A stretch of 62,323 nucleotides of DNA. Source: a virus (taxonomy: Duplodnaviria > Caudoviricetes). How positions within the stretch are numbered: the first letter of the stretch is position 1; every line of letters begins with the position of its first letter. Both the position numbers and the translations under genes were made by a program. Where the stretch lies: positions 1-62,323 of IMG/VR virus record IMGVR_UViG_3300006916_000050; one strand, given 5' to 3'. Of the stretch, positions 6,897 to 28,205 are shown in pieces. The notes under the pieces were generated by a model. The model did no database searches, had not been told where the DNA came from, and saw nothing but the letters and a program-made list of their open reading frames with translations.

Positions 6897-6989
6897 TCCC
6901 TTAATATTCACGCCTGCGTAAAAAAGTAAAAAAATAAAAAATCCTGCGCGCACACGTTATGAAGCGAACTGTAGAACAAAGGCGGAACA
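6897..6989. repeat. 93-bp AT-rich repeat, copy A, containing a LexA-type box
   Basis: 29-bp core identical to 28113 onward; A-tracts; GAAC-N7-GAAC at 6974-6988. Confidence 0.85.
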
Positions 6990-7041
6990 CTGTATCATTT
7001 CGAGAAACCCGGAAACAACACCGGATTCCGCCCTGCCCATT

Positions 7042-7356
7042 TCACTTCGCCCGATCGCCCTTCATTTGAGCCAGAACATTGAGCCTTGCCTCCTCCAGAC
7101 CGTTGAACCACTCGTCGTCGTTCACGCTCTGACCGCACGCTTTCGATAGTTCGGACACCATCTCCTGCGGTACTTGGAACCGCCTCACATAGAACAAGGC
7201 CGCCGACATCGTGGCGATCAGAACAGTGTCCGCGATCTCCCTCTTGTCCCTCCCGTTCGCCTCGAGGAAGTCCGCGAAGCTCGTCGCCTGCGACACGATC
7301 TGCAGTGTCATCGAGTTGACATCGCTCGGTGCTTCCATTGTAGTTTCTTTGACCAT
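7042..7356 (-). CDS. Hypothetical protein
   Basis: GGAGG RBS. Confidence 0.65.
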   Translation of the reverse strand: MVKETTMEAPSDVNSMTLQIVSQATSFADFLEANGRDKREIADTVLIATMSAALFYVRRFQVPQEMVSELSKACGQSVNDDEWFNGLEEARLNVLAQMKGDRAK

Positions 7357-7357
7357 A

Positions 7358-7579
7358 TCAAGTCCTCCTGTGGTTGTTGATCCACGCGTCAATCGCGTCT
7401 TCGTCATCAGTACATGCCTCGACCATCGCGATCGCGATCGCCAAGAACGTCGCCGAGACCATGCCGACATGATGATCCTCTCCTCCGAGAGCTTTCACCA
7501 TACCGAGAGCCGTCTCCCGACCACTTCGCTCCATCTCTGTGAGCGTCGCCATGTCGTCGTCTGAAAGTCTATGTAACAC
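7358..7579 (-). CDS. Hypothetical protein
   Basis: Coupled ORF. Confidence 0.55.
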   Translation of the reverse strand: MLHRLSDDDMATLTEMERSGRETALGMVKALGGEDHHVGMVSATFLAIAIAMVEACTDDEDAIDAWINNHRRT

Positions 7580-8006
7580 CTTCGATCCTTCCGTAATGCC
7601 CCTCCATCAGGAGCCTGATTGTCGCCGCGCACTCTCTGGCACTTGGCAATATTTCGACCTTATCCTGCCATATGGCAAGAGGTATTCCATGGTAGGCTTC
7701 GTCGATCTCGTCATGGCCCGAGAACAGCGCCCAGCCGTCAGGGACCCGAGCCCAGACGATCACGAGGCCGCCCGCCCGGTGCCGTTGCGAGGCCCAGACA
7801 TTTTGCTCCCGTCGTATGCCGACCCGGACCTTCGAACTCCCGCGCTTCGGGTACTCCTTGAGCCTCTTGCCCTCCAGCCAGCACTCCATCCCTTCGGAGC
7901 AGAGGTTCGAATCTGGTATTCCGGCCGAGAACTGGTCCTCGAACCGTTGAACATGCCCCTCGAGATGCGCTCGAAGGGTCTTCCATGCGCCGGACTCAGT
8001 TGCCAC
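7569..8006 (-). CDS. PD-(D/E)xK nuclease (VRR-NUC / Holliday junction resolvase-like)
   Basis: GIPD...WLEGK...RREQNVW pattern. Confidence 0.75.
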   Translation of the reverse strand: MATESGAWKTLRAHLEGHVQRFEDQFSAGIPDSNLCSEGMECWLEGKRLKEYPKRGSSKVRVGIRREQNVWASQRHRAGGLVIVWARVPDGWALFSGHDEIDEAYHGIPLAIWQDKVEILPSARECAATIRLLMEGHYGRIEGVT

Positions 8007-8364
8007 GGATGTCTCCACTCGTCGCGAGCGATATGAGCTCCTGTACGCGTTCGATGCCGAGCCTTGCGTTGATCCTGACACTGCCGACGATCACGTAGTT
8101 ATTGAGCCTCTCGATGCCGGTCCCGCACAAATGAGCGAACACGGACTCGACCGTGGAGGTGTCCCACTTACGGACGACATTGTCGAGCGCCGCCCGGATG
8201 TTCGGGTCGTCGAACATATACTCCGTGAAGACGAACTGATTGTAACCGCCGCGCTCCTTGACGATGATCTCGCGCCTCTCCGATCGCAGGGTGGCGTCCG
8301 TAGTTGGCCAGCGCCCCCGCACTTTTTCGAGGAAGTTCCTCTTCGAATTAGTCTCTACAGTCAT
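7996..8364 (-). CDS. Hypothetical protein
   Basis: AGGAG RBS. Confidence 0.65.
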   Translation of the reverse strand: MTVETNSKRNFLEKVRGRWPTTDATLRSERREIIVKERGGYNQFVFTEYMFDDPNIRAALDNVVRKWDTSTVESVFAHLCGTGIERLNNYVIVGSVRINARLGIERVQELISLATSGDIRGN

Positions 8365-8626
8365 GATTATTACTCTCCTGTTGCTTGGTGAATTCTTTGA
8401 CTACACTTGCCTTCGATGCGTTCTGCCAAGCCCGGACCCTTCCGATCCGAGCCATCCAGAGGCCGCTCCTCCCGCTATATGGACCCACGCCGTAGACGAT
8501 CGGCTCGAGCTCTATGCGACACGATCCTCGCTTGAGGGTCGTGCCGTAGAGGCGCAGGCCGGGGATCAGCTCTTTGAGCTCCCGCACGATCCGAGATAAG
8601 TTGTCTCGATCTCCTTGTCGTGCCAC
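8348..8626 (-). CDS. Hypothetical protein (start uncertain)
   Basis: 3' part of ORF 8348..8977 fills the gap between neighbours. Confidence 0.4.
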   Translation of the reverse strand: MARQGDRDNLSRIVRELKELIPGLRLYGTTLKRGSCRIELEPIVYGVGPYSGRSGLWMARIGRVRAWQNASKASVVKEFTKQQESNNHDCRD

Positions 8627-8811
8627 CGGAGAACCATCGCGGGCTCGGCGTCTTTGCGCAGCCGTTCGATAGCCGTTCGATGCACTACGTTCACCTTGAA
8701 CTGTATCCACGCGACATTCTCCAAATGCTTGATTTGCTGCTTCAGCTTGCCGACCTTCCAGAGCGCCCAGAAAAGGATCACGGTCTGGATCACCAGAACA
8801 GCGCCGGTCAT
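8566..8811 (-). CDS. Hypothetical membrane protein
   Basis: N-terminal hydrophobic helix; ATGA coupling. Confidence 0.55.
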   Translation of the reverse strand: MTGAVLVIQTVILFWALWKVGKLKQQIKHLENVAWIQFKVNVVHRTAIERLRKDAEPAMVLRWHDKEIETTYLGSCGSSKS

Positions 8812-9044
8812 TTGACCACCTCGATCCTGATGTCCGGCAGCACACGAACGCCGTGACCGTAGACGTACTTGATGTCGCCGGAACGCCGAGCCTCTGGCTT
8901 GCCGTCCGCCAATACGCAGCCCGCTTCGGCGTACGTGTTGATTGCCTCCAGCGCCGCGTTGTTGCAGGCAAGCACACGATCGAACGCGTGCTTCACCTCA
9001 TAGTCGCCGCCCATGATGGCAGCTACGATCAGGACGAACTTCAT
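8808..9044 (-). CDS. Hypothetical protein
   Basis: GGAGG RBS; ATGA coupling. Confidence 0.65.
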   Translation of the reverse strand: MKFVLIVAAIMGGDYEVKHAFDRVLACNNAALEAINTYAEAGCVLADGKPEARRSGDIKYVYGHGVRVLPDIRIEVVK

Positions 9045-9289
9045 TTGCGCGCCTCCCCGATTTCGCCGCCTTCATACGGAACGGGCTCCTTGGCGGGTGT
9101 GGCGATGACCGCAGTGTAGACGACGCCCTTGCCGAGCATGCACTCCGCACCAGACTTGCAGGACAGGTGGCGGATGTCGCCGCTCTCGATACCAGCCAGA
9201 GCGTCCGCTAGGGCCATCTCCTCGCCGATCAATACCTCGCCGAACTCCATCTTGTGAGGCCCGGTCAGCAGGGTTAGGTTGACGTACAT
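9041..9289 (-). CDS. Hypothetical protein
   Basis: AAGGAG RBS. Confidence 0.65.
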   Translation of the reverse strand: MYVNLTLLTGPHKMEFGEVLIGEEMALADALAGIESGDIRHLSCKSGAECMLGKGVVYTAVIATPAKEPVPYEGGEIGEARK

Positions 9290-9323
9290 TGTCTTCTCCT
9301 TGGTTGTGGCTTGGCGGGATGCC

Positions 9324-9563
9324 TTACCGAATTATTTCCTCGAGGTGCTGCTTCATACAGTCGATGCAGTCGTCCTCGAAGCGCTTGCCGTGCTCACAGA
9401 GCTCGAGAGCCTTGTTCATGGTGCCTTCCGTGGACTCCCGTGGGTAGTTGCCCGTGACGGCGACCGACATGGCGATCATCACCTTGTCGACCTCTGCCTG
9501 CAGAGCCTCGACAGACGCCTCGAGCTCCATCATGTAAACCTTCTCGAGCGGTGTCATAGCCAC
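9324..9563 (-). CDS. Hypothetical protein with C-terminal CEH..CxxC (possible Zn site)
   Basis: ORF track. Confidence 0.6.
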   Translation of the reverse strand: MAMTPLEKVYMMELEASVEALQAEVDKVMIAMSVAVTGNYPRESTEGTMNKALELCEHGKRFEDDCIDCMKQHLEEIIR

Positions 9564-9763
9564 TTCCTCGTTTTGAGCCCAGCGATGATCGCGTCGCGGT
9601 GCTCGGGCTCCATATCGTGTAAACGCTGCCGGATTATGGTCTGCGGGACCATTATCTCGATCACTTCCTCGTCGCTCTCGTCAAGGTAGGCCGAAACGTG
9701 CAGCTGCTTCTTGATCTGGTCGGACACGAGGGTCGACACGGCGTTCAAGGCATATTCAGACAT
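9554..9763 (-). CDS. Hypothetical protein
   Basis: Coupled ORF. Confidence 0.6.
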   Translation of the reverse strand: MSEYALNAVSTLVSDQIKKQLHVSAYLDESDEEVIEIMVPQTIIRQRLHDMEPEHRDAIIAGLKTRKWL

Positions 9764-10856
9764 CAGGCTTCTCCGTATGTGGCGGAACGGCGTCAGGGAT
9801 GCGCTCCATAATCCCGTCGACGGCAGCCTGCAGATCGGTGCGCAGCGCGTCCATGTCGATCGCAGGAGGTCGATCGTCGACCCAATTGCCCCTGATCATG
9901 CTGTCACGCATGACTACAAGCGATGCGATCGCCTTGGTGATGTGCGATAGGCCGCTGTCGGCGTCGATGTCCTCGCCCTCCCAGAACTGCCCGATGTGAC
10001 CTACGGCCGCGTCGACGTACACAGAGGCCCGAACGCCAGCGTCGCGGTAGTTGTGCCGCCCGTACTTGCGCGCGCCTTCCAGTAGCGCAACAGCGAGCTC
10101 CCATATAACCGTCATGGGGAGGACAGAGAACTGCCTCCACTTGCCGGTCCCGACCGCGTCCTTCGGGTTGGTCTTCTTCTTCGAAACCACCTCGGCGAAC
10201 TCCTTGTCGATCTGCCGGTTCAAGGCAAGGTCTTCGACCTTCCGGGTAACCCTGCCGCTATCAAGCAGCCACTTTATACCGTCGATGCAGCCCGACGGGA
10301 TGTTCGGCCGCGAGTGCCACTGCAGCTGCATTGCGCCGTACGCGCAATAAAGGACGCCGTCATCGTTTGGCCTGCCGTGACGATACTTGCTCGCCTGAAC
10401 CCATTGCGACGCAGCAATGTCGAACAGCATTTGGCTATTTTTTGGACCTGCCTTAACGAGAATCACTCGATCGTCCTCGCTAGACTTGCGGAACTCGACT
10501 TCGTTCTCCTTTTCGAAGTTGCCCATTCGCTCGAACTCTGACAGTGGAACGTAGTCATCGCCAAGTATGATCGAGCGGTCGTCTTCCTTGATCTTCTTGA
10601 AGAACGTCAGCACCTCGGGGATGTCGCACCAGCCGCCGGTCGTGAGCGTGCCGAGCCGCCTTTCCTTGACCGTGTTGATGAACCGAACCCTGCGCTCGGT
10701 CATGTACCAGTCGCTCTCGGGGATGATGAAGCAATCGTCCATGGGGATCGCCGCGCCGCTGATCAGGTCACGTTGATCGCCGGGAACCTTGCAGACATAG
10801 AACCGAGCACTTGTCCCGTTCTTGCGCTTGTCATCTCTCAGGTATTGCAGAGCCAT
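9756..10856 (-). CDS. dATP/dGTP diphosphohydrolase (DUF5664-like) domain fused to an unknown N-terminal region
   Basis: TNPKDAVG..EGARKYGRHNYR..RASVYVDAA..GEDIDADSGLSHI. Confidence 0.8.
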   Translation of the reverse strand: MALQYLRDDKRKNGTSARFYVCKVPGDQRDLISGAAIPMDDCFIIPESDWYMTERRVRFINTVKERRLGTLTTGGWCDIPEVLTFFKKIKEDDRSIILGDDYVPLSEFERMGNFEKENEVEFRKSSEDDRVILVKAGPKNSQMLFDIAASQWVQASKYRHGRPNDDGVLYCAYGAMQLQWHSRPNIPSGCIDGIKWLLDSGRVTRKVEDLALNRQIDKEFAEVVSKKKTNPKDAVGTGKWRQFSVLPMTVIWELAVALLEGARKYGRHNYRDAGVRASVYVDAAVGHIGQFWEGEDIDADSGLSHITKAIASLVVMRDSMIRGNWVDDRPPAIDMDALRTDLQAAVDGIMERIPDAVPPHTEKPDV

Positions 10857-11226
10857 CTAATCGTCCTTCCTTCTTGTGTAGCGATGCGACCTCGAACACG
10901 AAGTCCATCAGGTGAGCCGGGAACCTGTCGGTGTGCGGGTTCGTCGCGAACTCCGCGACCAGCAGGTCTTGGTCGGGTTCTGGATTGCAGCATAGAATGA
11001 TCTTCCCGAGCCGCAAGTCAAAATACAGTTTAAGGTAAACCTTACGGGTCGACGGCTTTACGACATACTCGTCGATGCACTCCCGGAGCTCACATAGCTG
11101 CTTGTACTTCTCGTCCATGCCGTCGATCATCGCCACGAACCGCGCGATGCTGCAGGTGTAGTTGTAAGGCCACGCCATGTCAGGTTGACAGTTGCCGCCT
11201 TCAAGAACCAGAGCGCGCCACGTCAT
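10831..11226 (-). CDS. Hypothetical protein
   Basis: Coupled ORF. Confidence 0.55.
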   Translation of the reverse strand: MTWRALVLEGGNCQPDMAWPYNYTCSIARFVAMIDGMDEKYKQLCELRECIDEYVVKPSTRKVYLKLYFDLRLGKIILCCNPEPDQDLLVAEFATNPHTDRFPAHLMDFVFEVASLHKKEGRLDGSAIPER

Positions 11227-11411
11227 GCGTCAAGCCCCTCGAGGTATGCGTTGCCCTTCTCGGTCGGTTGGCCGTTCGGGTGGACGTAGCCGTTGCGCCG
11301 GAGCTCGGTGTAGGCGTGCCATGTGGCAGCGCCGTCGTTGCATAGCGCCTGTCTGTCGTGCGTCCCTCGGTCCGCCAATAGCTCGAGAATTGTTTGCTCG
11401 AATTCAGTCAT
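11223..11411 (-). CDS. Small protein, possibly winged-HTH-like
   Basis: AAGGAG RBS; EQTILELL...ELRRNGYV...TEKGNAYL pattern. Confidence 0.5.
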   Translation of the reverse strand: MTEFEQTILELLADRGTHDRQALCNDGAATWHAYTELRRNGYVHPNGQPTEKGNAYLEGLDA

Positions 11412-11422
11412 TGCTTCACTCC

Positions 11423-12922
11423 TTACACGATGTCGATCAGGGTGGATTTCGCGCGCGTGACCGCGACATACTCGAGGTTGACCTCCTGCGCCATCTGCCA
11501 GTCTTGGCGAGCGAACTGCGAGGGGTTGTACTGGTCGCGGTGCAGGATGTAGACCGTGTCCCATTCCAGCCCCTTCGACTTGTGCTGCGAGCACAGGGTG
11601 ATCGTGTCCTGCAGGTTCGATACGTTATCGCCGAACATGCCCTCGATCAGAGCGCGCAGATCAGCGACGGTGTTACCGTTCTGTTCGCGCACACGGTCGA
11701 TCAGGACCTTGATGGTGGCGACTTGGTCGGTGATGCGATCAGCGCGATCTTCCTGCTCCTTCTCGAGAGCCTTCTTCACTTCCTTCTCGAGGTAGACTTC
11801 CAGCTTGTTCTCGAGAGCGTCGATGGTCTTGATCTTCCAGCGGGTCGCCAGCTTCACCAAGCCCTCGCCAATGTTGCGCCCTTCGATCTTCGCTGCCTTG
11901 CCTTCGCGTATCAATGCGAAGCACATCTCGACCAGTGGCTTGTTGTAGCGGCACAGGATCGCGTCGCCCGGTTCGGCTTCGGCGTAGGCCGTCGCGAGGT
12001 CGACGGTCCTGTAGGTGCCTTCTGGAGCGCCGGGGACCGACGTGATGTGCGAGACCAGCTTCCGGGCTTGAGCGACAACAGCCTTCGGGCAGCGGAACGA
12101 ATCGGTGAGCATCATCTCGGTGCACTTGAAGCGAGCCTTGATCTGATCGAGCGAATCATTGTCCGCGCCAGTGAAGCCGAAAATTGCCTGATGTGGATCG
12201 CCGACTGCGATCAGGCGGGACTCCCTCCACATCATCCGGGCAGCCATCTCGCGCCGGGTAGGGTTGGTGTCTTGAGCTTCGTCGATGACCACGAGGCCGT
12301 ATGTCCAGAACTTGCAGCGCTTGAGCAGTGGCATGTAGACCATGTCGTCGAAGTCGATCACGTCGAGCATGGTCGAGGACTTGCGCAGAACCCAATCCGC
12401 GCCCTTGAGCATACGAGCGACGTCGGCCGACTCCGGCAGAGCGTCGAGGAGGTCGTAGTGATACGCCATGTCCTCCCAATCCTGCAGCGTAGGGTTCGGC
12501 GTGCAGCCGTCAATATAGAAGCCACGCTGCTTGGCCATGGACACGACCTTCGCAATTACTGCCGTGTACTCGCCGAGGCTCGGGTCGTTGACCTCCAGCG
12601 CGTCCATGATCTTGAGGACCTTCTTGCCGTCCAGCTCGAGGTTGAACGTGCCTTCGTATGCGCGACGCAGAGCAGTGAGACCGGCCGAGTGAAACGTCAT
12701 GCAGAAGGTCTGCTTGAGTCCGACCGTCTTCTCTTTAAGCTCCTTGGCCATCTTGGTGTTGTAGGCGACGATGCAGGAGCGACCGTCGAAGCGCTTGGCA
12801 GCCTCGACCATCGTCGTGGTCTTGCCCGCGCCCGCGACTGCGATCAGGATGCCGTTACCGGTGCCAGCCTCGACGAAGTCGAAGACCGCTTGCTGCATGT
12901 CGGAGGGGATGAAGTTCGTCAT
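11423..12922 (-). CDS. SF1 UvrD/Rep-like helicase
   Basis: AVAGAGKTT, VIDEAQD, VGDPHQAIFGF, HKSKGLEW, YVAVTRAK. Confidence 0.92.
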   Translation of the reverse strand: MTNFIPSDMQQAVFDFVEAGTGNGILIAVAGAGKTTTMVEAAKRFDGRSCIVAYNTKMAKELKEKTVGLKQTFCMTFHSAGLTALRRAYEGTFNLELDGKKVLKIMDALEVNDPSLGEYTAVIAKVVSMAKQRGFYIDGCTPNPTLQDWEDMAYHYDLLDALPESADVARMLKGADWVLRKSSTMLDVIDFDDMVYMPLLKRCKFWTYGLVVIDEAQDTNPTRREMAARMMWRESRLIAVGDPHQAIFGFTGADNDSLDQIKARFKCTEMMLTDSFRCPKAVVAQARKLVSHITSVPGAPEGTYRTVDLATAYAEAEPGDAILCRYNKPLVEMCFALIREGKAAKIEGRNIGEGLVKLATRWKIKTIDALENKLEVYLEKEVKKALEKEQEDRADRITDQVATIKVLIDRVREQNGNTVADLRALIEGMFGDNVSNLQDTITLCSQHKSKGLEWDTVYILHRDQYNPSQFARQDWQMAQEVNLEYVAVTRAKSTLIDIV

Positions 12923-12952
12923 GTTTTTCTTCCTTGAATTGATTGAGGCCCG

Positions 12953-13004
12953 AGAATAGTTGTTCCCGGACCTCCTTGTCAATCGCTGATTTCGTTATGG
13001 TTAA
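12953..13004 (-). promoter_or_regulatory. Promoter with CtrA-like box
   Basis: TTAACCAT-14-TTGACA-18-TATTCT; a hairpin overlaps the -10. Confidence 0.75.
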
Positions 13005-13012
13005 TTCCCCAT

Positions 13013-13120
13013 TTAGAATCCGACCTGCGGTGCGTTGTAGACGTCGACCGCTGCGAACAATAACAGAGTCACGATGGCGATCGCGCCGAATATGATGATG
13101 ATCTTCGAGTTGTCGTTCAT
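13013..13120 (-). CDS. Small membrane peptide (35 aa)
   Basis: MNDNSKIIIIFGAIAIVTLLF..., ATGA-coupled, read manually. Confidence 0.5.
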   Translation of the reverse strand: MNDNSKIIIIFGAIAIVTLLLFAAVDVYNAPQVGF

Positions 13121-14078: not shown

Positions 14079-14376
14079 ATATCCAGACCTTCAGTAGGTT
14101 GCCCTCGACGACGATGCGCGAGGGGATGTTGAGGCGTTTACACGCTTCGCGGGTGTGCACTGTCCACCAAGCGTCGGATTCAGCATACCGGTCGCCCTTA
14201 CCCGGAAACAGCATCGAGAACAAGTTGTAGTCTTTTTCGGCTTGGCCGTCCAGAGCGTAGGTCATCAGCTTCGGACTACACTCGTCGACGATCGGGCAGG
14301 TGCCGAGCACGGCGACCTCCTTCTCGGTGATCACGAGGTCGTTACCGCAGGTCGCGCAAGTCATGTTGAGTCTCAC
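14047..14376 (-). CDS. Hypothetical protein (N-terminal CxxC)
   Basis: GTGA coupling to the deaminase gene. Confidence 0.55.
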   Translation of the reverse strand: MRLNMTCATCGNDLVITEKEVAVLGTCPIVDECSPKLMTYALDGQAEKDYNLFSMLFPGKGDRYAESDAWWTVHTREACKRLNIPSRIVVEGNLLKVWIYADAPNHVSI

Positions 14377-14858
14377 TTGGTTTCTTCCTCCTTTGGCATG
14401 TCTACGCGGTCGAGCGCATCGTGCATGTGATTCGTTGTCACCTCCTGCGCGCGGACGTCAACGCGACAGTGATGCAGAAGAAGGCCGCCGTGCTCGTGGT
14501 GATCGGCACGTTGTGGCCGAGCTGAATTGTAGACCACCTCCTTGATCCCGGCCGCCGCTATGTGCTTGCAGCAATTGTCGCACGGGTAGAACGACGTGTA
14601 GAGCGTCGCGCCGTCGGTGGAGACGCCGTTCTTCGCGGCGATCAGCAGAGCGTTCATCTCGGCGTGGACGACGAACTCATACTTGAGAGGCCGCTGCCAA
14701 TTGTGCGAGGTGTCGGGGAACCCTGCCGGGAACCCATTGTAGCCCATGGACAGGACTCGGTTGTCGAGAACCAGAACCGCGCCGACTTTCGTCGAAGGGT
14801 CCTTCGATCGCATGGCCGCCATCTCGGCCATGAGGAGAAAATACGTGTCCCAGTTCAT
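14373..14858 (-). CDS. dCMP deaminase
   Basis: WDTYF..RSKDPSTKVGAV..GYNG..HAEMNA..PCDNC. Confidence 0.92.
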   Translation of the reverse strand: MNWDTYFLLMAEMAAMRSKDPSTKVGAVLVLDNRVLSMGYNGFPAGFPDTSHNWQRPLKYEFVVHAEMNALLIAAKNGVSTDGATLYTSFYPCDNCCKHIAAAGIKEVVYNSARPQRADHHEHGGLLLHHCRVDVRAQEVTTNHMHDALDRVDMPKEEETK

Positions 14859-15220
14859 AGCATAACCTTCCCGAATAATTCCTCGTCTATGTCCCAGCAT
14901 CCGGCACTCTTCGACTGTTTCTCGATCGAGATCACCTGCGCCCGTGTCGCAATCATCCTGATTATCTTCGCCCGGTCGACTCCCGGCGCTGCCGTGTACT
15001 CGAGAGCGTCGATCACCTCGCCCAGCTTCGCGTCGTATTCACCGAGCCCCTTGCAGGCGACATACCGCACTGTCTTGAGCATCAGATCGTAGAACGCGTC
15101 CTTGCGCAGCTTCGCGTCTGCGCGCTCGATCTGCTCCTTCGTCAGGAGATCGCTCTTACCAGCGTGGGCGGACGTGATCAACAGGAGCGCGATCGGTATA
15201 GCATACAAGAGAGCCTTCAT
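14855..15220 (-). CDS. Hypothetical exported protein
   Basis: Signal peptide-like N-terminus ending AHA. Confidence 0.6.
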   Translation of the reverse strand: MKALLYAIPIALLLITSAHAGKSDLLTKEQIERADAKLRKDAFYDLMLKTVRYVACKGLGEYDAKLGEVIDALEYTAAPGVDRAKIIRMIATRAQVISIEKQSKSAGCWDIDEELFGKVML

Positions 15221-19268: not shown

Positions 19269-19304
19269 TGTGTAGCTCTCCTGTTTTGGGACTCCGTCCC
19301 GTTG

Positions 19305-19901: not shown

Positions 19902-20049
19902 TGTGGTAGCCCTCCGGTGTCGTTTGGCTCGCCGTCGAGAGCCGTGTTGTTGTGTTCGTGGCAGCCGAGCACGTAGGCGTCGACCTCCTTGCCAGACAGG
20001 AACCGGAAGTCGTTCACGCCGTGCGCATCGTTCATGTGCTCGATTATCG

Positions 20050-20496: not shown

Positions 20497-20771
20497 CGCT
20501 TCTTGCTCTTGATCATCACGATCTTCTCCGCCGCGTACGGCTTCGCCGTAGCCTCGAGCGTCGACCAGATCGTCCCGGCGATGTCGTACTTGCCGCCGTG
20601 CGTCGTCAGGCTCCTGTCGTCCGAGATGTCGATCAGCTCCACGATGTTGAACTTCTCCGCCAGCTCCTTGACGCTTCTCACGATCGTCCAGTCGCCGGGT
20701 CCGAAGTCTGTTTGACCTTCTTCTGCGGCGTGGACTTTCCAGCGCTTTTTATAGTGTCCGACTGCATACAT
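20493..20771 (-). CDS. Hypothetical protein
   Basis: GAGGAG RBS. Confidence 0.6.
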   Translation of the reverse strand: MYAVGHYKKRWKVHAAEEGQTDFGPGDWTIVRSVKELAEKFNIVELIDISDDRSLTTHGGKYDIAGTIWSTLEATAKPYAAEKIVMIKSKKR

Positions 20772-21295
20772 TGCTTGAATCTCCTCATGAATTGGAAGGC
20801 CGCATGTGGCGGACTCCAGTTAGTACCTATAGACGGATTGTGGCCCGGAAACAAGTCATCAGTTGGCCACTTCTCGGGTGGCTCCGACATGAGAGCCTGT
20901 TCAGCTCTCAGGATTGCGACGTCGACCTCGTTCACAACAGGCGGGAACGGGTAGATGAATCCGAACTTCTCCGCAGCGACCCGCTCGACCTCTGACTCGA
21001 GGTCCGCGAACTCCGGTCCCACGAGAGCCTTGAGCGGGCGCACCAGATCGCCGACGTACGCCTCTGCGCAGTCGTGCATCAGGCCGGTGTAGGCGACCTC
21101 GACCGTGTCCACCTTCAGGAGGTAGTCGTGAATGTGGCAGCAATGCTGCGCGACGGAATAGAAGTTCTTGGTGTGGCCGTTGTACCGGCAGGTCTGCGAA
21201 AGTGCTTGAGCGATGTCCCGGATGTCGAACATAGACGTCTTGACCGGGAACGAGAACTTCTTGCCGCTGTAGGTTTGCATCCATTTATCAGACAT
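20678..21295 (-). CDS. HD-domain nucleotide phosphohydrolase (YfbR/YfdR-like)
   Basis: DIAQALSQTCRYNGH..YSVAQH..LMHDCAEAYVGD. Confidence 0.88.
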   Translation of the reverse strand: MSDKWMQTYSGKKFSFPVKTSMFDIRDIAQALSQTCRYNGHTKNFYSVAQHCCHIHDYLLKVDTVEVAYTGLMHDCAEAYVGDLVRPLKALVGPEFADLESEVERVAAEKFGFIYPFPPVVNEVDVAILRAEQALMSEPPEKWPTDDLFPGHNPSIGTNWSPPHAAFQFMRRFKQCMQSDTIKSAGKSTPQKKVKQTSDPATGRS

Positions 21296-22865
21296 TGAGA
21301 TCATCCTTGTGGTTGTAATAAAACAAGCGTTTTCGTGCGCGACTCATTCCGACGTATGCGACTCTCGCCTCGGTGTCGGGGTTGAGCGCCATGCGGCTCC
21401 TTATCTTGTTCGTGATGCGTCGCGAGAGGATCACGTTGTCGGCTTCCGCGCCCTTGACAGAGTGAATCGTCCCGAGCGTAACGGGTGGCTTGGAGTCGAA
21501 GGTGTAGCCGCTATCGAGCAGTCCCTTGATGTAGTCGATGTCGGTCTGACGCAGGTCGAGAACCTTCCACCAAGGCAGGTCGAATCGCTTCATGATCATC
21601 GCCGGATATATCGGCCGCCGGGTCATCTTAGAGATGCCGAGCTCCTCCGGGCTCCCCTTGCGAACGTCCGGGTGCAAGTAATTGAGCAGTTGATACGCCT
21701 TCGGCCCGGAGATGTCCTCGTCGTTCTGGACTGCAATGTAGCTCTTGATCACGTCGCATAGAGGGGTGTCGAGCGAGCTCTGCCCCTTGTCCATATAGAG
21801 CACGCCGAACGTCCGTAGCACTCTGCGCCACTTCTTCAGGAAGTCAGCGGTCCGCGCAAGCAAGAACCACGTCTCTCCGTTGTTGAAACCGCCGAGCGTG
21901 GCATGTCTGCCCAGCGACAGAGCGATGATCTCGTCGTCGTTGATCGAGTCGATCACACCGCCCTCCTTGTTCGGCTCGAACTCCTTCGTGATCCTGTTCT
22001 TGATCCCTTCGACCGCGTACGTCGTGCACTCCTTCCAGATAACAGACGGCAGCCGGTGCGACTTCGGGAGGACTATCTTCTCGCAGGTGTCACGCAGCGA
22101 CAGGAAGTGTCCGACGTCCGCGCCGCTCCACTCATAGATCGCTTGATCATCATCGCCCGCGTATATGATCTCCTTCGCATTGATCTCGAGCTTCTCCACG
22201 CATCGCCACTGCAGGAGCGATAGGTCTTGCGCCTCGTCGACGATCAGCAAATCGAAGTCAGGCGATTCCCCGTCCTCGACGTAGCCCTCGAGGACGGCAG
22301 TGTGGTCGATGTAGCCCTCGTCGAGGAGTAGGCGGTATTCTGCGTCGCGTTGCTTTGCGTGCTCGTAGGACATGCCGAGGAAGTCCGTGACCTGCTTGAG
22401 GTCTTGCTGCAGGACCCTTGCGTAGCCGGAGGCAAAGAGCGCGGCGTCGTCTTCGGTAGCGTAGGTGACCTCGTACTCTAGAGAAATTCTGCCCTTAACG
22501 GCTCGGCTTTCGGGGTGTATGTCGACCGCCTCACACCACTGTCTGTACCTCGAGTGCGTCAGGAACTTCTTCGTCTTGTCGCGACGCAGCCGGGTCGCCA
22601 TCGAGTGCAGCGTCCGAAAATACGGCAGGGGATCGTCGTCGCCCCGACCAGTGAACGAGTCCGCGTCGATGCCAAGCTGGTCAAGAGCACGCTCCCGCGC
22701 CTCCTGTATCGCGCGCCGTGTAAACGACACGAACGCGATCCGGCTCGGGTGTCCTCCGGCCGCGATATATTCCTCGACCCTCTTCAGGAGGTATGTGGTT
22801 TTGCCGCAGCCGGGTCCGCCGAGAACAATACTAGAACGAGGTCGAGTCTGTCGTGGTTGTGACAT
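21288..22865 (-). CDS. SF1 UvrD-like helicase (second copy)
   Basis: GGPGCGKTT, IVDEAQD, AGDDDQAIY, TIHSVKGAEAD, YVGMSRAR. Confidence 0.92.
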   Translation of the reverse strand: MSQPRQTRPRSSIVLGGPGCGKTTYLLKRVEEYIAAGGHPSRIAFVSFTRRAIQEARERALDQLGIDADSFTGRGDDDPLPYFRTLHSMATRLRRDKTKKFLTHSRYRQWCEAVDIHPESRAVKGRISLEYEVTYATEDDAALFASGYARVLQQDLKQVTDFLGMSYEHAKQRDAEYRLLLDEGYIDHTAVLEGYVEDGESPDFDLLIVDEAQDLSLLQWRCVEKLEINAKEIIYAGDDDQAIYEWSGADVGHFLSLRDTCEKIVLPKSHRLPSVIWKECTTYAVEGIKNRITKEFEPNKEGGVIDSINDDEIIALSLGRHATLGGFNNGETWFLLARTADFLKKWRRVLRTFGVLYMDKGQSSLDTPLCDVIKSYIAVQNDEDISGPKAYQLLNYLHPDVRKGSPEELGISKMTRRPIYPAMIMKRFDLPWWKVLDLRQTDIDYIKGLLDSGYTFDSKPPVTLGTIHSVKGAEADNVILSRRITNKIRSRMALNPDTEARVAYVGMSRARKRLFYYNHKDDLNV

Positions 22866-24486
22866 CGAGTTCTCCTTGCTTGAAGTTCTGGTTCTCTTTT
22901 ACGTTCAAGCACCAGACCAGACCAGTGAATCCGCCTTCGTCAATGTGCCGCTTTTCGGCAGCCGAGTCGATGTTCAATAGATGACTATGCAGGGTCTCGA
23001 ATACCATGTTCGGCTCCTCTTTTCGAAGCCATCCCATGAGAGTGCTGTCGGAGACCATCAGGAGCCCGTTGTGGAGGTACGGCCGCCCGTGCTTCATGTG
23101 CCTTGTGTTGAAGGTGCCTTGTGTCAGAACCCAATTCCCGAGCTTCTCCTGAAAGCGCTCGAAGGTCGAAGCGCCCTTGACGTAGACGACATTCTTCTTC
23201 GCGAGCTGCATCAGCCCCGTGACATGGCCCTGCCATTCGGGCTCCGACATCTTGCGAGGGAACGCGAACAAAAGGGGAACGACGGCGCTTTGATATTCTG
23301 CGAACTTGCCGATCCGATCGCCCGAGAACGGACCAAGACGGGTCTCGAAGTTGGAGAGGCTCAAATAGTAGGACTGCTCGCCGGGTCCGTATTCATAGAT
23401 TGTGATCGCGTTCGGGAGCATGGCTTCGTCGTTCGCCTCTATGCCGAACGGTAGCTTCCGACAGGCCGTCGCACGGCAATGTTGCTTGAGCTGATCCCTG
23501 TTGCAGCGATAGTGGTAGTCCTTCTTGAACAGGGTCTTCATTACCGTGTTCTTGATCTCCTTGTCGCCGAGCCCGAACGCCGGAATATGCTTCCCGTCTA
23601 TGGTCGCAGCGCCTAGATCGAGCTTCACCAGCTTATCGAATACCGTGTCTGTCGTCTCGTACTTGCGCTTGTAGTAGAGGCCGATGTCGAAGAGGAGCTC
23701 GTTGCGCGGTGAGCCCTGCGAGGACCCGTCCGCCACGTAGCCCCGGAGGATTGATTGAAGGCAGGGAGGCCCGTCGATGAAGTCCTCAGAGGAAACGGAG
23801 CGCTTGGCCTTAGTTGCGTTGGCCAGTGGATCATAGTCGTACTGCTCGAGCCACTTGTCGACCCATGGCTGGTCAACAGATTCGACCATGTCGACGAACT
23901 GCTCGAGCGGCACGTCGTAGAACGCGTCGTCTTCGGGAGAGTAGCCCCGACATTTGCAGATGTCGCCATAAAACGGAATGTTGATCCAATTGCCGACGTC
24001 TTCGTCGTCAATGCGAACCGTCTGCTTCGGGAACACCTCCGCGTTGCCGTAGCCGAGCTCGCCAGCGAGCTCCCGCATTGCGCGGAACGCCAGCGTCGCT
24101 GCAATAGGCTCCTTCGACAGGAGCCAGACGTGGCAGCCGCCGGACTTCGATCTGGTAACGAATAGAGGCCGCTCGCCGATAACCTTGACCACCGCGTCGA
24201 TGATCGTGTCCTTGTCCTCACCCTCGGCAGGATAGACGTCGATGTCGATCGCGGCGAACCTGATCGACTTGCCGTCGTCCATCAGCGGGACGATGCCCAT
24301 GCGTTGCTTGCCCTCGATGTGCGCGACATAGTCCTCGAGGGTCGGCCCTCGGCCGAGCGTCTCGGCACGCCCTTCGTGCTTGTTCTTCTCTTTGTTGATC
24401 CCCTTGACGGTGTACTGCCCGAACCGCTTGGAGAGTCCGGTGTATATGTCTGCCAGCTTGGCAGCGAGAGCGGGTGTATTTTCCAT
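22831..24486 (-). CDS. Archaeo-eukaryotic-type primase (prim-pol)
   Basis: AIDID, RSKSGGCHVW, EVFPKQ, GNWINIPF; later GPPCL and Cys cluster. Confidence 0.85.
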   Translation of the reverse strand: MENTPALAAKLADIYTGLSKRFGQYTVKGINKEKNKHEGRAETLGRGPTLEDYVAHIEGKQRMGIVPLMDDGKSIRFAAIDIDVYPAEGEDKDTIIDAVVKVIGERPLFVTRSKSGGCHVWLLSKEPIAATLAFRAMRELAGELGYGNAEVFPKQTVRIDDEDVGNWINIPFYGDICKCRGYSPEDDAFYDVPLEQFVDMVESVDQPWVDKWLEQYDYDPLANATKAKRSVSSEDFIDGPPCLQSILRGYVADGSSQGSPRNELLFDIGLYYKRKYETTDTVFDKLVKLDLGAATIDGKHIPAFGLGDKEIKNTVMKTLFKKDYHYRCNRDQLKQHCRATACRKLPFGIEANDEAMLPNAITIYEYGPGEQSYYLSLSNFETRLGPFSGDRIGKFAEYQSAVVPLLFAFPRKMSEPEWQGHVTGLMQLAKKNVVYVKGASTFERFQEKLGNWVLTQGTFNTRHMKHGRPYLHNGLLMVSDSTLMGWLRKEEPNMVFETLHSHLLNIDSAAEKRHIDEGGFTGLVWCLNVKENQNFKQGELDVTTTTDSTSF

Positions 24487-24593
24487 GAAGTTGTCCTTCG
24501 AAAATATGTGGTTGGTGAGCCGACCGCGAGCCCGCCGGGAGCTGGTGCGATCGGCTCGGTATCAGGTCCGCAGGGGAACGGACCGGATGGTGC

Positions 24594-25421
24594 TTAGAAC
24601 GGAACCTCTTCGTCGATAACCGAGTCGTTGTCACTAGGCTTCGGTTTCGCGACAGTATCGTCCATCGACTTCTCCATGTCCACCTTGACCTCGCCAGCTG
24701 CGAGAGCTTCGGCGAACGCCTTCGCGTCGAGAATGTCGTCCTTGTTGGCGAACCCAATGCGCTCGAAGTGCCAGACGTACCACTTGTCGTCGCCCTTGGT
24801 CTTGAGGACCGTCGTGGCCTTGAACTGGTGAGCGTAGCGGATGGCCTTGCCCGAGATCGCGTTGTCCATGATCAGGCCGTTCATGTCCATGGACGGCTTC
24901 AGCTGCGTCTTGGTCATGTTCATGACCGCCCCGACAGTGTTGCCCGACTTGTTCTGGAACCGGATGACGTGAGTGTGCGTCTTCAGGAGATGGTTGCCGG
25001 GTGTGAAGCAGTCAGGAGCGCCCTTCTGGATCACGTCGTTGTTGCTATCGTCGCGGATGACAGGACATGCCTCGCCCTGCGCTACGCTGTACTCTGCAAC
25101 CAGTCCACCACCTTCGCGACGGGGAACCCATTCGACGTACGAAACCTTGTAGGCGCACGGCACGAACAGGAACCCTTCACCCTTCTCGTACAAGTCGCCC
25201 GTGAGCGTGTTGACGATCATCCCCGGCTTCGCGCCTTCGATGTAAGCAGGATCGTCCTCGTCGACCTGCGGAGAGAGCTGTTGCAGGATTCGGAGGTATG
25301 GGATCGAGATGTCGTCCCGTCCGAGCACTTCGCCTTCTGTGTCGTCTGCCAGCTTGGCGAGGAACTCGGCTTCTGCCGGGAGCCCCGCTTTTTCGGTTTT
25401 AGTCACTTCTTGCTTTGCCAT
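24594..25421 (-). CDS. Putative single-stranded DNA-binding protein
   Basis: IPYLRILQQLSPQV..GAKPG..YVEWVPR; acidic tail ending EEVPF. Confidence 0.75.
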   Translation of the reverse strand: MAKQEVTKTEKAGLPAEAEFLAKLADDTEGEVLGRDDISIPYLRILQQLSPQVDEDDPAYIEGAKPGMIVNTLTGDLYEKGEGFLFVPCAYKVSYVEWVPRREGGGLVAEYSVAQGEACPVIRDDSNNDVIQKGAPDCFTPGNHLLKTHTHVIRFQNKSGNTVGAVMNMTKTQLKPSMDMNGLIMDNAISGKAIRYAHQFKATTVLKTKGDDKWYVWHFERIGFANKDDILDAKAFAEALAAGEVKVDMEKSMDDTVAKPKPSDNDSVIDEEVPF

Positions 25422-25457
25422 GGTGTTTTGTCCTTCCTTGGCGTTGATGAAACAGGT

Positions 25458-26024
25458 TTACTTGATGTCGACGCGTTCGAACTCGAACGCACCGAGCAGG
25501 GAGAGGTCCGTCGGCTTGTTGTCCTTGAGCCGCTCCCTGATCCACTTCGAATATGTCGGAGCCGCGATCGACTCGGTCTCCGAGCCCTCGAGCCCGAGAG
25601 CCTTCGCTTCGTCCAGTATTGCAGCGACCGCATTGGCCTTGCCGCGTCCTGCGTCGATGGTCACGATCTGCTTGATGATGTCCTCGCCACCGTTCTCTCG
25701 GACGTACTTCATCACCTCGTCGGACCGAGCCTTCGGGAGCGATGCCTTGAGATCGCTTGCCAGTTTGAGGGTCTGGCCAGTCGAGAGCTCTAGGCTCCTG
25801 ATTCCGATGTCCTTCATCATCTTCGGGAGCTTGTCGAGAGCTATCTCGTTCACCTGCTTCTTGATTGCCTTGGCTTCCTCCTCGAGGCGCGACAGTGTGC
25901 CTTGTAGCGCCATCAGGTGATTGCCGTACTTTGTCACGGCAGCAAGGTCGGCAGGTGCAGCCTTCTCGCCTTCGTCGGCCGCAGCCAGCTCAGCAAGGAA
26001 CGGATCGAGTTCTTCAGTCGTCAT
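25458..26024 (-). CDS. Conserved phage replication-module protein
   Basis: Coiled-coil N-terminus, LPKMMKDIGI; located upstream of the SSB. Confidence 0.7.
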   Translation of the reverse strand: MTTEELDPFLAELAAADEGEKAAPADLAAVTKYGNHLMALQGTLSRLEEEAKAIKKQVNEIALDKLPKMMKDIGIRSLELSTGQTLKLASDLKASLPKARSDEVMKYVRENGGEDIIKQIVTIDAGRGKANAVAAILDEAKALGLEGSETESIAAPTYSKWIRERLKDNKPTDLSLLGAFEFERVDIK

Positions 26025-26367
26025 GGTTCTCTCCTTCGGTGTCGTCAATCTGCAGGTCGATCGGACTGTACTCGCCGAGCGACGGGTTATATGCGAGCAA
26101 GGTCAGCACGCCGTCGTTCATGTACGTGAACAGGGAGCTCGCGATCGCGTTGTTCAGGAGCGGTCCGGGATTCAGGATCATGAAGTTCTGCTCCTCACCT
26201 CCTACACCGTCCAGCTTGGCTCGAGCATAGTCGCGCATTGCGACCATCCCGCGTTTGCCGTTGCTGCGATAATTAGCATCGAAGATGTACAGGAGCTCGC
26301 CGAACTTGGCCGCTGCCGTGTAGTCGAATTCGTCTCCGTCGCTTTCCGTAACTATAAAAACTGCCAT
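26014..26367 (-). CDS. Hypothetical protein
   Basis: AAGGA RBS after a promoter. Confidence 0.65.
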   Translation of the reverse strand: MAVFIVTESDGDEFDYTAAAKFGELLYIFDANYRSNGKRGMVAMRDYARAKLDGVGGEEQNFMILNPGPLLNNAIASSLFTYMNDGVLTLLAYNPSLGEYSPIDLQIDDTEGENHDD

Positions 26368-26397
26368 TATGTAGTCCTTCTCTTGTTTCCGGTTTGC

Positions 26398-26427
26398 ACC
26401 ATACATTCCGGTTCTTGCTTATGTCAA
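26398..26427 (-). promoter_or_regulatory. Sigma70-like promoter for the replication genes
   Basis: TTGACA-18-TATGGT at the end of the SNF2 gene. Confidence 0.65.
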
Positions 26428-28103
26428 CCACTAAATAGATCGACCTCGTCCGGGGTTAATATCCAATTTTTGACCATGTCGCCGACAAGGTGTGCCGCGA
26501 TCTCGCGCCGTTCTCGTAGCACTTTGATCAGCTTCGAGTCCATCGTCTTGTATGCTGCGAGGTCGGTGTAGTCGATCGAGAACTTCTGCCCGATCCTGTG
26601 AACACGGTCCTCGGACTGCAGCCGTTGGCCCATGTTGAAGCTGTTGTTGAAATAGCAGACGTGCCGTGCCGCCCGGAGGTCGATCCCGGTTCCACCGGCC
26701 GCAGGGTTCGACACGAAGAACCGCTTCTTGCCGTCCCGGAAGTCCGTCAGAGCCTTGGAGCGATCGGCCGGGGATGTTCGCCCGGTGTACATCGTGCAGT
26801 CGCTCCCGAGCGCCTCCGCTATCTGGTCTTGGTTGAACTGGAACGTCGTCCAGATCACGCCCTGCCCGTGGCAGTCCTCGACCCATGCCATCAGCGCCTC
26901 CATACGGGAGGAGCTCTTACCAAGCAGGTGAGGTTCGCCATCGTCGACCTTGACGAAGCCGCAGGTGATCTGCTGTAGCCGCAGGAGGAGCGTCAGAGCG
27001 TGCGTTGTGGAGACGATCTCGTTCTCGCCGACCTCGGAGATCATCTCGTCCTTCATCGCGTTGTAGACCTTGCGCTCGTCGTCGTTGAGCTCGAACGGGT
27101 GCGTCCGGTAGACCTTGTCTGGCAGGTCGAGGCAGTCCTCCTTCATCAGGCGCGACGTGCACGCCTTGAGCCAGCCACTCAGCTCGTCGGTGTTCTTGTA
27201 GCCGACCACCGTCTCGATCGGCCGCTCGATCGTCTTGCCCGACTTCGTCTTGCGGGAGTATGTCATGCTGCCCAGCGGACGCTTGATCGCGAACCGCTTC
27301 TCGAACGTGAAATAGTCGAGGCCGTTTACACAGGATGGATCGAGGAACCGCAGCTGCGACCAGACGTCGAGCGGTGAGTGTGGTGTAACGGTGCCTGTCA
27401 GGATAGCCCGCTTGACCGCCTTCGGTGCGAGTTTGTGCAGCGCCTTCGTCCGAGAGCCCTTCGGCGACTTCATACCGTGGCTCTCGTCGATGATCAGGAA
27501 AACCTTCCGGTGCTCGAGCATCTCGGAGGCGAACGCGAACGCCTTCTTGTGGATCAGTGCGTCGTAGTTGATCGCTGCGACGATCAGCTTGTCCTCCTCG
27601 AGGAAGCCAGCGTCGCGCCGCTTCTTCGTGGGCCATGCGAACGCCCGGTAGGGGATCGAGAGGTTCTCGTCGAGGTCGGTCGTGATCCATTTCTCATGAA
27701 CGCCCTTGAGGGTCACGATCAGGATCGCGTCGATGTCGCCCTCGGCGAACGCGTGCGCCGCGATGTCGAGCGCAGCCTTCGACTTGCCGAGGCCCATCTC
27801 CCAGAGCAGGCCGAAGAACTTGCGGTCCTTGTACAGCTCGAGCGCCTTGCGCTGATGTTCCATGGCCGGAATCTTCTCGACGTTGACCGCGTGCTCGACC
27901 GAGCTCTTCGACCGGGTCTCGATGCCCGTCGTGTCGACGCCCATCTTTTCGACCAGCCGCAGGTTGCGCCGGGTCGTCGCGAACGTGACACGGTTGCCAG
28001 TGACCTCGACCAGCGGGTCGAAGTGCGCCTTGATTGCCGAGAGGTACTTCGGCGGAACGTCGGACAGGATTGCCGTGGTTGCCTGCTGTTGTGTCAGTAT
28101 CAT
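26424..28103 (-). CDS. SNF2-family (SF2) helicase
   Basis: EMGLGKS, IIDESH, LTGT, GGTGIDL, QSEDRVHRIGQ. Confidence 0.92.
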   Translation of the reverse strand: MILTQQQATTAILSDVPPKYLSAIKAHFDPLVEVTGNRVTFATTRRNLRLVEKMGVDTTGIETRSKSSVEHAVNVEKIPAMEHQRKALELYKDRKFFGLLWEMGLGKSKAALDIAAHAFAEGDIDAILIVTLKGVHEKWITTDLDENLSIPYRAFAWPTKKRRDAGFLEEDKLIVAAINYDALIHKKAFAFASEMLEHRKVFLIIDESHGMKSPKGSRTKALHKLAPKAVKRAILTGTVTPHSPLDVWSQLRFLDPSCVNGLDYFTFEKRFAIKRPLGSMTYSRKTKSGKTIERPIETVVGYKNTDELSGWLKACTSRLMKEDCLDLPDKVYRTHPFELNDDERKVYNAMKDEMISEVGENEIVSTTHALTLLLRLQQITCGFVKVDDGEPHLLGKSSSRMEALMAWVEDCHGQGVIWTTFQFNQDQIAEALGSDCTMYTGRTSPADRSKALTDFRDGKKRFFVSNPAAGGTGIDLRAARHVCYFNNSFNMGQRLQSEDRVHRIGQKFSIDYTDLAAYKTMDSKLIKVLRERREIAAHLVGDMVKNWILTPDEVDLFSG

Positions 28104-28112
28104 GTTTAGAGC

Positions 28113-28205
28113 TCCCTTAATATTCACGCCTGCGTAAAAAAATAAAAAATAAAAAAATCTCGCCCGTACACGTAATGAAGCGAGGTTGAGAACAAATCGG
28201 GAACA
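28113..28205. repeat. 93-bp AT-rich repeat, copy B, containing a LexA-type box
   Basis: Colinear with 6897-6989; GAAC-N7-GAAC at 28190-28204; abuts the helicase RBS. Confidence 0.85.

Follow-up and report, generated by a model that had tools for sequence, protein, structure and literature searches.

A two-copy operon-head element of an uncultured tailed phage, probably a control site shared by its replication and packaging genes

The IMG/VR virus record IMGVR_UViG_3300006916_000050 (Duplodnaviria; Caudoviricetes), whose whole length of 62,323 nt is the window analysed here, contains a homologous pair of repeats, the repeat family D5, that heads both the helicase/replication block and the terminase block of the phage. 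Because related phages have a pair of their own at the same two places, the element is probably a control site shared by the two blocks. Our favoured explanation, which we hold at about an even chance, is that the phage group has a twin operon-head promoter/regulatory cassette, to which a factor of the group binds, and that D5 is the form it takes in this phage. The original prediction, made from the sequence of this window, had instead placed both blocks under the host SOS repressor LexA.

D5 comprises a 93-nt element plus 15 nt of weaker similarity. On the minus strand, copy A covers 6882..6989 as a whole (93-nt element 6897-6989) and copy B 28098..28205 (93-nt element 28113-28205). The anatomy given in the original prediction was borne out: the two colinear 93-bp copies are identical at 78 of 93 positions in an ungapped alignment, and the pair extends to 108 nt at 81% identity. 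Of the identical 29-bp core TCCCTTAATATTCACGCCTGCGTAAAAAA the window has two exact copies, 6897-6925 and 28113-28141, and no third at up to three mismatches, where 0 matches are expected (100 shuffles). CACGT(T/A)ATGAAGCGA is present in both copies and absent elsewhere in the window at up to three mismatches; at the same threshold the window has no third copy of the middle block. The A-tracts are the sole genome windows with at least 21 A+T in 25 nucleotides, and GAAC-N7-GAAC is found at equal offset in both copies (6974-6988 and 28190-28204).

All recognisable genes of the window are encoded on the minus strand; along transcription D5 therefore reads GTTC-N7-GTTC, then oligo-T, then core. In coding-strand numbering, where position 1 is window position 6989 in copy A and 28205 in copy B, positions 1-17 are TGTTCC-N3-TTTGTTCT and contain the GTTC-N7-GTTC direct repeat (TGTTCCGCCTTTGTTCT in copy A, 6974..6988; TGTTCCCGATTTGTTCT in copy B, 28190..28204). 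This repeat is the candidate LexA box and, in copy A, also a hairpin 3′ arm plus U-rich tail. The middle block CGCTTCATWACGTGTRCGSGC follows at positions 24-44 (CGCTTCATAACGTGTGCGCGC at 6946..6966; CGCTTCATTACGTGTACGGGC at 28162..28182). Positions 49-70 are an oligo-T tract of three T-rich units of about 8 nt each (6920..6941 and 28136..28157), and positions 65-93 are the invariant 29-nt core TTTTTTACGCAGGCGTGAATATTAAGGGA (6897..6925 and 28113..28141), which has the only −10-like hexamer of the element (GAATAT/TATTAA) plus a TTAA.

Gene annotation confirmed that the two copies head a helicase/replication block and a terminase block, and both sit in intergenic gaps that are among the larger ones of the genome. 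As had been predicted, copy B adjoins the ribosome-binding site (RBS) of the SNF2-family helicase gene: it ends about 8-10 nt before ATG 28103, and its terminal AAGGGAG is the RBS. The helicase gene (26424..28103, minus strand; PF00176 2.7e-17, PF00271 5.9e-13) is the first behind copy B. It is followed in transcription order by genes for Pam3 gp32-34-like proteins, AEP primase and UvrD, then by those for an exonuclease, PolA, dCMP deaminase, a second UvrD and a dATP/dGTP diphosphohydrolase-domain protein, up to a last open reading frame (ORF) at 7470..7042. Copy A lies 115 nt before ATG 6782, the start of a 184-aa ORF (6228..6782, minus strand). A 115-aa ORF, the gene for the large terminase subunit (terL; 4564..5937, minus strand; PF03237 2.6e-24, PF17289 9.3e-16) and small ORFs come next. 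The prediction had let this copy precede terS, terL and portal. This holds for terL, but the 184-aa ORF is "terS" by position only, having no match among families, solved structures or cultured-phage proteins, and the portal gene follows only after more than 4 kb and a further regulatory cassette. The leader between copy A and the first ORF of the packaging block includes a 17-bp A+T-rich palindrome read from the sequence, ATGTAATGTTATTACAT (6806..6822), which is unaltered in L164, a metagenomic variant of this phage; it could be an operator or a terminase-related site.

Relatives were found by a terL-based search, and three whole records are syntenic with the window: G095 (62,337 bp; identity 61% in terL, 63% in coat, 46% in PolA, 40% in SNF2), G096 (83,753 bp, closed; 61% in terL, 61% in coat, 51% in UvrD2, 38% in SNF2) and G102 (71,520 bp; 56% in terL, 28-32% in replication proteins). 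The pair of G095 (9656-9719 vs 43635-43698; 64 nt, 90.6%, E 4e-15) has its first copy about 2 kb upstream of terL and its second about 1.4 kb upstream of the SNF2 gene. G096 has a mosaic of about 190 nt made up of conserved blocks (about 2030-2200 vs 45590-45740; 97% in the best 35-nt piece), one copy about 1.5 kb before terL and the other about 0.9 kb before SNF2. In G102 (65593-65638 vs 24988-25034; 47 nt, 93.6%), one copy precedes terL by about 1.4 kb and the other heads the minus-strand replication genes. Two direct copies, one on the packaging-gene side and one at the replication-gene head, are thus present in all four genomes that share the replication module, the window included; G099, which shares only terL, has no such repeat pair.

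The middle block (CGCTTCATWACGTGT/CGTGTRCGSGC) is the sole part of D5 common to the two-copy elements of relatives, and it recurs in two of them, G096 and G095. T[AT]ACGTGT is found in the window only in D5 (2/2) and in G096 only in the elements (3/3), there as inverted arms, and CGCTTCATAACGTGT matches one G096 arm at 13 of 15 positions. CGTGT[AG]CG[CG]GC is limited to D5 (2/2) and the first G095 copy, c1 (1/1). The local alignment of copy B with c1 beats 300 of 300 shuffles, while the other three pairings do not. Altogether, an ACGTGT-containing block occurs in three of the four genomes; in G102 there is no more than a looser CACGTGCGC theme. Neither the GTTC pair nor the T-tract nor the 29-bp core is found in the two-copy elements of G095, G096 and G102. 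From these comparisons we take a cis element common to the heads of the replication and packaging blocks to be a conserved design of this phage group, and the part of D5 that appears to belong to it is the ACGTGT block, with the GTTC pair, the T-tract and the 29-mer outside it.

Each element of the relatives otherwise has features, and short tandem or direct repeats, of its own. In G096, inverted arms delimit the element, and a perfect 18-bp palindrome with GATC sites lies within it; a tandem TATAAGAT repeat in the G102 element doubles as promoter spacer and −10. Sigma-70-like hexamers were seen by eye within the G102 element (CAGACA-16-TATAAC), as were a −10 TATAAC 70-90 nt behind both G096 copies and a TATAAT directly behind G095 c1. 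The copies G095 c2, G096 e2 and G102 f2 sit in divergent intergenic regions, and the one at G095 c2 has a divergent 66-aa helix-turn-helix ORF without a homologue in the window or in G096.

Searches for D5 itself returned little. In IMG/VR, neither an exact scan with 25 nt of the core nor a two-block D5 pattern gave a match. The two-block pattern matched twice in metagenome contigs: L164 is a variant of copy A with 97-98% identity, and L163 was rejected as a chance match. A further 41 IMG/VR matches to the architecture of GTTC box and T-tract were discarded as low-GC chance matches, none of them being D5-like by nhmmer (best E 1.4). The nhmmer model of D5 found nothing better than E 1.7 in 225 loci (1.29 Mb) and no match at E ≤10 in 80 terL loci. 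SNF2-based searches led to IMG/VR relatives of at most 39% identity and genome contigs of at most 37%. None of 76 SNF2 loci (four of 80 were dropped as too short) had an upstream box, and upstream A/T tracts were absent apart from three low-GC loci. In Dinoroseobacter phage R5C, the corresponding synteny point has a long intergenic region with repeats, in which GTTC-N7-GTTC is absent.

Both D5 copies begin within a stable hairpin on the minus strand. The hairpin at copy A (6976..7036; −26.5 kcal/mol, z −4.19) starts 6 nt past the stop of ORF 7042-7470, with the first GTTC half-site and the spacer inside its 3′ arm. The hairpin at copy B (28200..28247; −30.0 kcal/mol, z −3.60) starts at the stop codon of the SprT-like ORF 28247-28894, and its 3′ arm covers the first half-site. 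For each of them, 0 of 200 shuffles were as stable. The 5′ arm lies in both cases in the non-homologous flank and pairs with the first bases of D5, after which the U-rich TTTGTTCT follows; thus two different 5′ arms pair with the same conserved TGTTCC segment. Both copies agree with an intrinsic terminator in having a G+C-rich hairpin past a stop codon and a U-rich tail (UUUGUUCU), which begins 3 nt past the stem in copy B. A simple terminator scan called neither hairpin. In L164 the two changes in the 5′ arm of the copy A hairpin are transitions that keep the pairing via G-U. A hairpin like that of another repeat family, D2, flanks copy B in inverted orientation at 28206-28246.

A consensus scan found T(T/G)(T/G)AC(A/T)-N16-18-TATGGT at seven places on the minus strand, with the first hexamer at 52987, 51562, 30863, 29676, 28917, 26427 and 2533. 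The seven sites share the unusual −10 hexamer TATGGT, and four of them lie inside D2, which has four 78-nt copies on the minus strand (2479-2556, 28863-28940, 30809-30886 and 52933-53010). Each D2 copy includes the CtrA-type box TTAACCAT, a terminator hairpin with a covarying stem around TGTTTACAC (z −4.6 and −6.7) and a TTTACA-16/17-TATGGT pair; the copies have the conserved leader ATCGAAAC..AAGGAAAC..ATG. The site at 26427 is directly behind the SNF2 gene, so the replication block would not be a single operon. D5 has none of these sites, and its sole promoter-like part is the −10-like GAATAT/TATTAA of the core, which lacks a −35. Since the standard promoter type is found at seven places and not in D5, D5 would represent a separate class. 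Readings of D5 as a hairpin between middle block and core, as boxA/nut-like, as a sigma-54 or ECF-sigma promoter and as a full CtrA site were dropped after inspection by eye, and that as a phage-type RNA polymerase promoter was dropped since no such polymerase is present among the ORFs.

Our favoured explanation, the twin operon-head cassette, would arrange these parts as follows. D5 would start within the terminator-like hairpin and the U-rich tail TTTGTTCT that close the preceding transcription unit. The conserved block CGCTTCATWACGTGTRCGSGC would be the putative binding site of a DNA-binding factor of the phage group, followed by the 22-nt oligo-T tract and by the invariant 29-mer with the only −10-like hexamer. 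Transcripts might start near the GGGA that acts as helicase RBS. If the hexamer is used, the T-tract would be at about −47 to −26, the centre of the middle block at about −62 and the GTTC pair at about −87. One factor-dependent promoter type without −35 would then start, or restart, both the helicase/replication block and the terminase block, so that two DNA-handling functions are switched on together, and the GTTC pair would be part of the terminator tail and perhaps also an accessory host-LexA site. What we infer from this layout is promoter activity, where transcription starts, and a factor placed about 62 nt before that start. In class I activator-dependent promoters, repeated phage cassettes that lack a −35 need a factor bound upstream. 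D5 is like them in the missing −35, in a conserved upstream block whose distance to a −10-like hexamer is fixed, and in its few copies at operon heads; it is unlike them in its 22-nt oligo-T tract and its 29-nt invariant core, which are unusual, and in that its activator, start site and activity are only proposed.

Several observations weigh against the cassette. Consensus scans detect no −35/−10 pair in D5. With only 10 nt between the core of copy B and the ATG, a start near GGGA implies a very short leader. The parts read as promoter are lineage-specific, since T-tract and 29-mer are not common to relatives. No candidate binding protein for D5 was recognised among the ORFs of the window, and none of the listed sequencing runs that contain phage sequence is an RNA run. 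Furthermore, the cumulative GC skew differs between the two D5 copies by 355 of a range of 409, a gap reached by 2% of random position pairs, which would fit a replication role.

According to the original prediction, host LexA on the GTTC-N7-GTTC of both copies would be the main gate that keeps the helicase/replication and terminase units off until SOS induction; it might do so by blocking an adjacent activator site or the alpha subunits of RNA polymerase. We consider such a main gate doubtful; functional binding of LexA to D5 is, tentatively, possible. The motif itself was rightly assigned: GTTCN7GTTC is the Caulobacter LexA motif in an excerpt of PMC12700426, and among sampled alphaproteobacterial loci, 30 of 33 for lexA and 13 of 30 for recA have its exact core in the 350 nt before the gene. 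These loci include none from G035, a genome of the sample that is flagged unpublished. D5 matches this core exactly, at equal offset in both copies and at the heads of both modules, with a T before and after each half-site as in true sites, and only 0.33-0.39% of composition-matched shuffles of D5 contain such a box. The distance from box to start codon (87-206 nt) is within the range of lexA and recA boxes, and the phage uses host-type regulator motifs, as shown by ten TTAACCAT boxes where 0.31 are expected. Flanks and spacer, however, are uninformative. With a position weight matrix built from 47 true sites, flanks and spacer score 0.26 in copy A and 2.10 in copy B, against a leave-one-out mean of 5.95 for the true sites (quartiles 2.32, 7.25 and 9.86), which puts the D5 boxes into the lowest 15-21% of true LexA sites. 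Relative to whole-genome composition these scores are at about the 95th-97th percentile, but random sequence of D5-like T-rich composition reaches them in 37% (A) and 25% (B) of cases, so that the box flanks add nothing. A chance box in a coding region, 22823-22837, scores higher (6.04). It is one of two minus-strand boxes in coding sequences, both taken as chance, and the other, 23266-23280 (CGTTCCCCTTTTGTTCG), resembles the D5 boxes at 15 of 17 positions. GAAC-N7-GAAC is not enriched in the window (7 vs 3.43 expected; 9 of 100 shuffles have at least as many), its intergenic DNA (5.5% of the genome) would contain about 0.19 boxes by chance, and the two D5 boxes count as one ancestral event.

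The prediction had further argued that the half-sites are conserved while the spacer differs. The half-sites are indeed identical at 8 of 8 positions, but so are 49 of the 64 positions outside the core (p ~0.12), and the spacer is identical at 4 of 7. The blocks actually conserved at the box are TGTTCC and TTTGTTCT, which are also hairpin arm and tail; the overlap with arm and U-tail explains the conservation of the box without LexA. Moreover, the box lies about 75-85 nt upstream of the only −10-like hexamer, and consensus scans show no sigma-70-like promoter at or near it. Integrase, repressor and S24 peptidase genes were not found among the window ORFs with Pfam and further protein searches. 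GTTC-N7-GTTC, whose spacing the prediction expected to be kept in homologous elements, was found in 0 of 6 homologous or analogous element copies of G095, G096 and G102, which goes against the prediction; one G096 copy has GTTC-N7-GGTC. A lineage-specific LexA site in the window phage may be compatible with this result. L164, which has the box, is uninformative because it is 97-98% identical genome-wide. Upstream of packaging genes, the box occurs in 1 of 80 terL loci, which is chance level. At one locus, L319, TTTGTTCATGATTTGTTCC is located at 2249-2263 in a 470-bp divergent intergenic region, about 270 nt before a terS-like ORF, in a phage whose terL is 54% identical. A precedent for the LexA reading is GIL01 of Bacillus thuringiensis, where, as excerpted from PMC6182141, host LexA with gp7 represses at P1/P2 (replication genes) and P3 (late genes). 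The likeness lies in one type of host SOS repressor site before replication and late units and in the lack of a recognisable dedicated phage repressor gene. Yet GIL01 is a tectivirus of a Firmicute, and its palindromic LexA boxes lie within promoters and are experimentally proven, whereas the candidate D5 box is the alphaproteobacterial direct repeat, distant from the −10-like hexamer, overlapping a hairpin and absent from related elements. The exact core match and the module-head positions stand, the flank scores are uninformative, and hairpin overlap, the lack of a recognised promoter over the box and the absence in relatives weaken LexA gating; the evidence from the relatives appears to fit a common regulator on twin promoters better than a host-LexA device.

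Three further explanations dispense with LexA, and two of them, an origin and a pac site, were alternatives in the original prediction. There is a small chance that D5 is a paired replication element of the SPP1 oriL/oriR kind, in which direct repeats bind an initiator beside an A+T-rich unwinding tract; the copy by the helicase/primase genes would fire, and the late-region copy would be a second origin or a fork barrier. [quoted passage not shown] In addition, D5 has the only strongly A+T-rich tracts of the genome, its GTTC repeats are spaced by 11 nt, and copy B adjoins the helicase gene. A sharp turn of the cumulative GC skew falls at 6.5-7 kb and a local minimum at 28 kb, and the D5 pair ranks second of 231 intergenic-gap pairs by skew. 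This minimum is, however, a flat plateau at 16-34 kb with the global minimum at 33375, the G095 pair is undistinguished by skew (25% of random pairs), and in both phages the steep part looks tied to genes beside the packaging block. Chance readily produces some 4-mer repeated at 11 nt within 93 nt, and the A+T tract is not general, being absent near the G096 copies and present in G095 only at c1; an unwinding tract that is not conserved in relatives weakens the origin reading without doing away with it. The SPP1 origins bind a known initiator, gp38, with oriL inside the gp38 gene in the same excerpt, whereas no initiator was recognised among the 88 ORFs, a weak negative with many ORFs of unassigned function. 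Unlike in SPP1, both D5 copies are exactly at operon heads behind terminator-like hairpins. These hairpins, directly past stop codons and overlapping the D5 5′ end, lend a slight probability to a boundary element that acts at the RNA level only, with neither promoter nor DNA-binding protein: a terminator tail and a conserved U-rich leader for 3′-end formation, processing or translation enhancement in read-through transcripts. The wobble-compatible changes in L164, the U-rich tract and AAGGGAG RBS before the helicase start and the lack of a standard promoter are consistent with it. But D5 matches no Rfam family, and the element itself has no consistent fold, the z values of the whole region (−1.6 and −2.5) being driven by the upstream hairpins. 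A candidate pairing of middle block and core is weakened in copy B and not compensated, AAGGGA in copy A has no start codon after it, and the shared block of G096, palindromic and inverted in its arrangement, speaks for a DNA site. Finally, copy A might be a pac site for the small terminase, with copy B as a second or decoy site, since copy A is just upstream of the terminase block and the record closes on itself (1-300 vs 61975-62274, 98%) as for a permuted headful genome; with a second full copy before the helicase gene, and a replication-head copy in all three relatives as well, the chance of this is minimal.

Outside D5, motifs of the host regulator CtrA, given as TTAA(N7)TTAA and TTAACCAT in the excerpted PMC6180460, are enriched. 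The ten TTAACCAT boxes of the window (2549-2556, 12997-13004, 29692-29699, 30879-30886, 31129-31136, 45019-45026, 50631-50638, 51548-51555, 53003-53010 and 53617-53624) are a number that 0 of 100 shuffles reached. Seven of them are in intergenic DNA, 14-194 nt before gene starts. Full TTAA-N7-TTAA sites occur twice where 0.04 are expected (31133-31147 and 50631-50645); one of the two precedes the coat gene and one lies just behind the holin gene. In seven other records, the syntenic G095, G096 and G102, G099 with terL only, and G100, G101 and G103, TTAACCAT counts are 0-2 each. The enrichment suggests that host CtrA controls structural, lysis and small-gene units. CtrA sites have been described in alphaproteobacterial phages under the term "lytic deferment" (excerpt of PMC9437464), and the present phage would resemble those in that the motif of a global host regulator is co-opted in phage promoter regions. 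Its boxes, though, mark other units than D5: no TTAACCAT was found in D5, which has only a single TTAA, located in the core inside the −10-like hexamer. For Caulobacter, the excerpt of PMC6180460 describes repression by CtrA through a half-site over the −10; repression of D5 via this TTAA is a lead only. No phage-encoded CtrA was found among the window ORFs. We consider it unlikely that this virulent-looking phage is wired to LexA at its twin heads and to CtrA at most other units at once. Lytic development would then require a host that is DNA-stressed and, at the same time, in the right state of its cell cycle, and this lineage alone would have added the LexA sites to a cassette that its relatives use without them.

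The ends of the record overlap, which indicates one phage genome of about 61,974 bp (G+C about 59%). The overlap falls inside the portal gene and is 98% rather than 100% identical; we read the record as a closed assembly that represents either a permuted genome or a mixed population. No tRNA genes were found in the window. The units downstream of the packaging block carry portal, RNR, a MuF-ADP-ribosyltransferase fusion, SLT and PhoH, then scaffold, coat, connectors, tube and tape measure, and the last stretch before copy B contains a distal tail like that of a gene transfer agent (GTA), holin, small ORFs and the SprT-like ORF (28894..28247). The CtrA-type boxes and the GTA-like genes for tail and holin make an alphaproteobacterial host likely. 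Cultured phages are only distantly related, the SNF2 protein being 39% identical to that of Dinoroseobacter phage R5C; the closest SNF2 relative is protein P0002 (71% identity), encoded on a 64-kb contig. DNA of the phage is present in freshwater, sediment and crustacean metagenome runs, and contigs from four sequencing runs break at the A-tract. Two further gene sets were noted, all on the minus strand. A 1142-aa MuF-like head protein fused to a C-terminal ADP-ribosyltransferase domain (54840-58268; PF04233, PF03496, PF01129) may be an injected host-modifying enzyme. Genes for a dATP/dGTP diphosphohydrolase-domain protein, a dCMP deaminase and a 5′-deoxynucleotidase-like protein (9756-10856, 14373-14900 and 20678-21304) together form a nucleotide-pool toolkit, which hints at modified DNA bases.

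If LexA binds D5, this would be the first direct-repeat, alphaproteobacterial LexA control of the replication and packaging units of a tailed phage and, with the CtrA-box signal, a case of double host-regulator co-option. If it does not, D5 is a caution that a terminator's arm and tail can yield an exact match to 8 bases of a host operator. If the twin element is a shared switch, it would mark where this uncultured group of phages, with genomes of about 60-84 kb, an SNF2/primase/PolA replication module and GTA-like tails, couples genome replication to packaging, and the conserved ACGTGT block would be a concrete handle for finding the factor.

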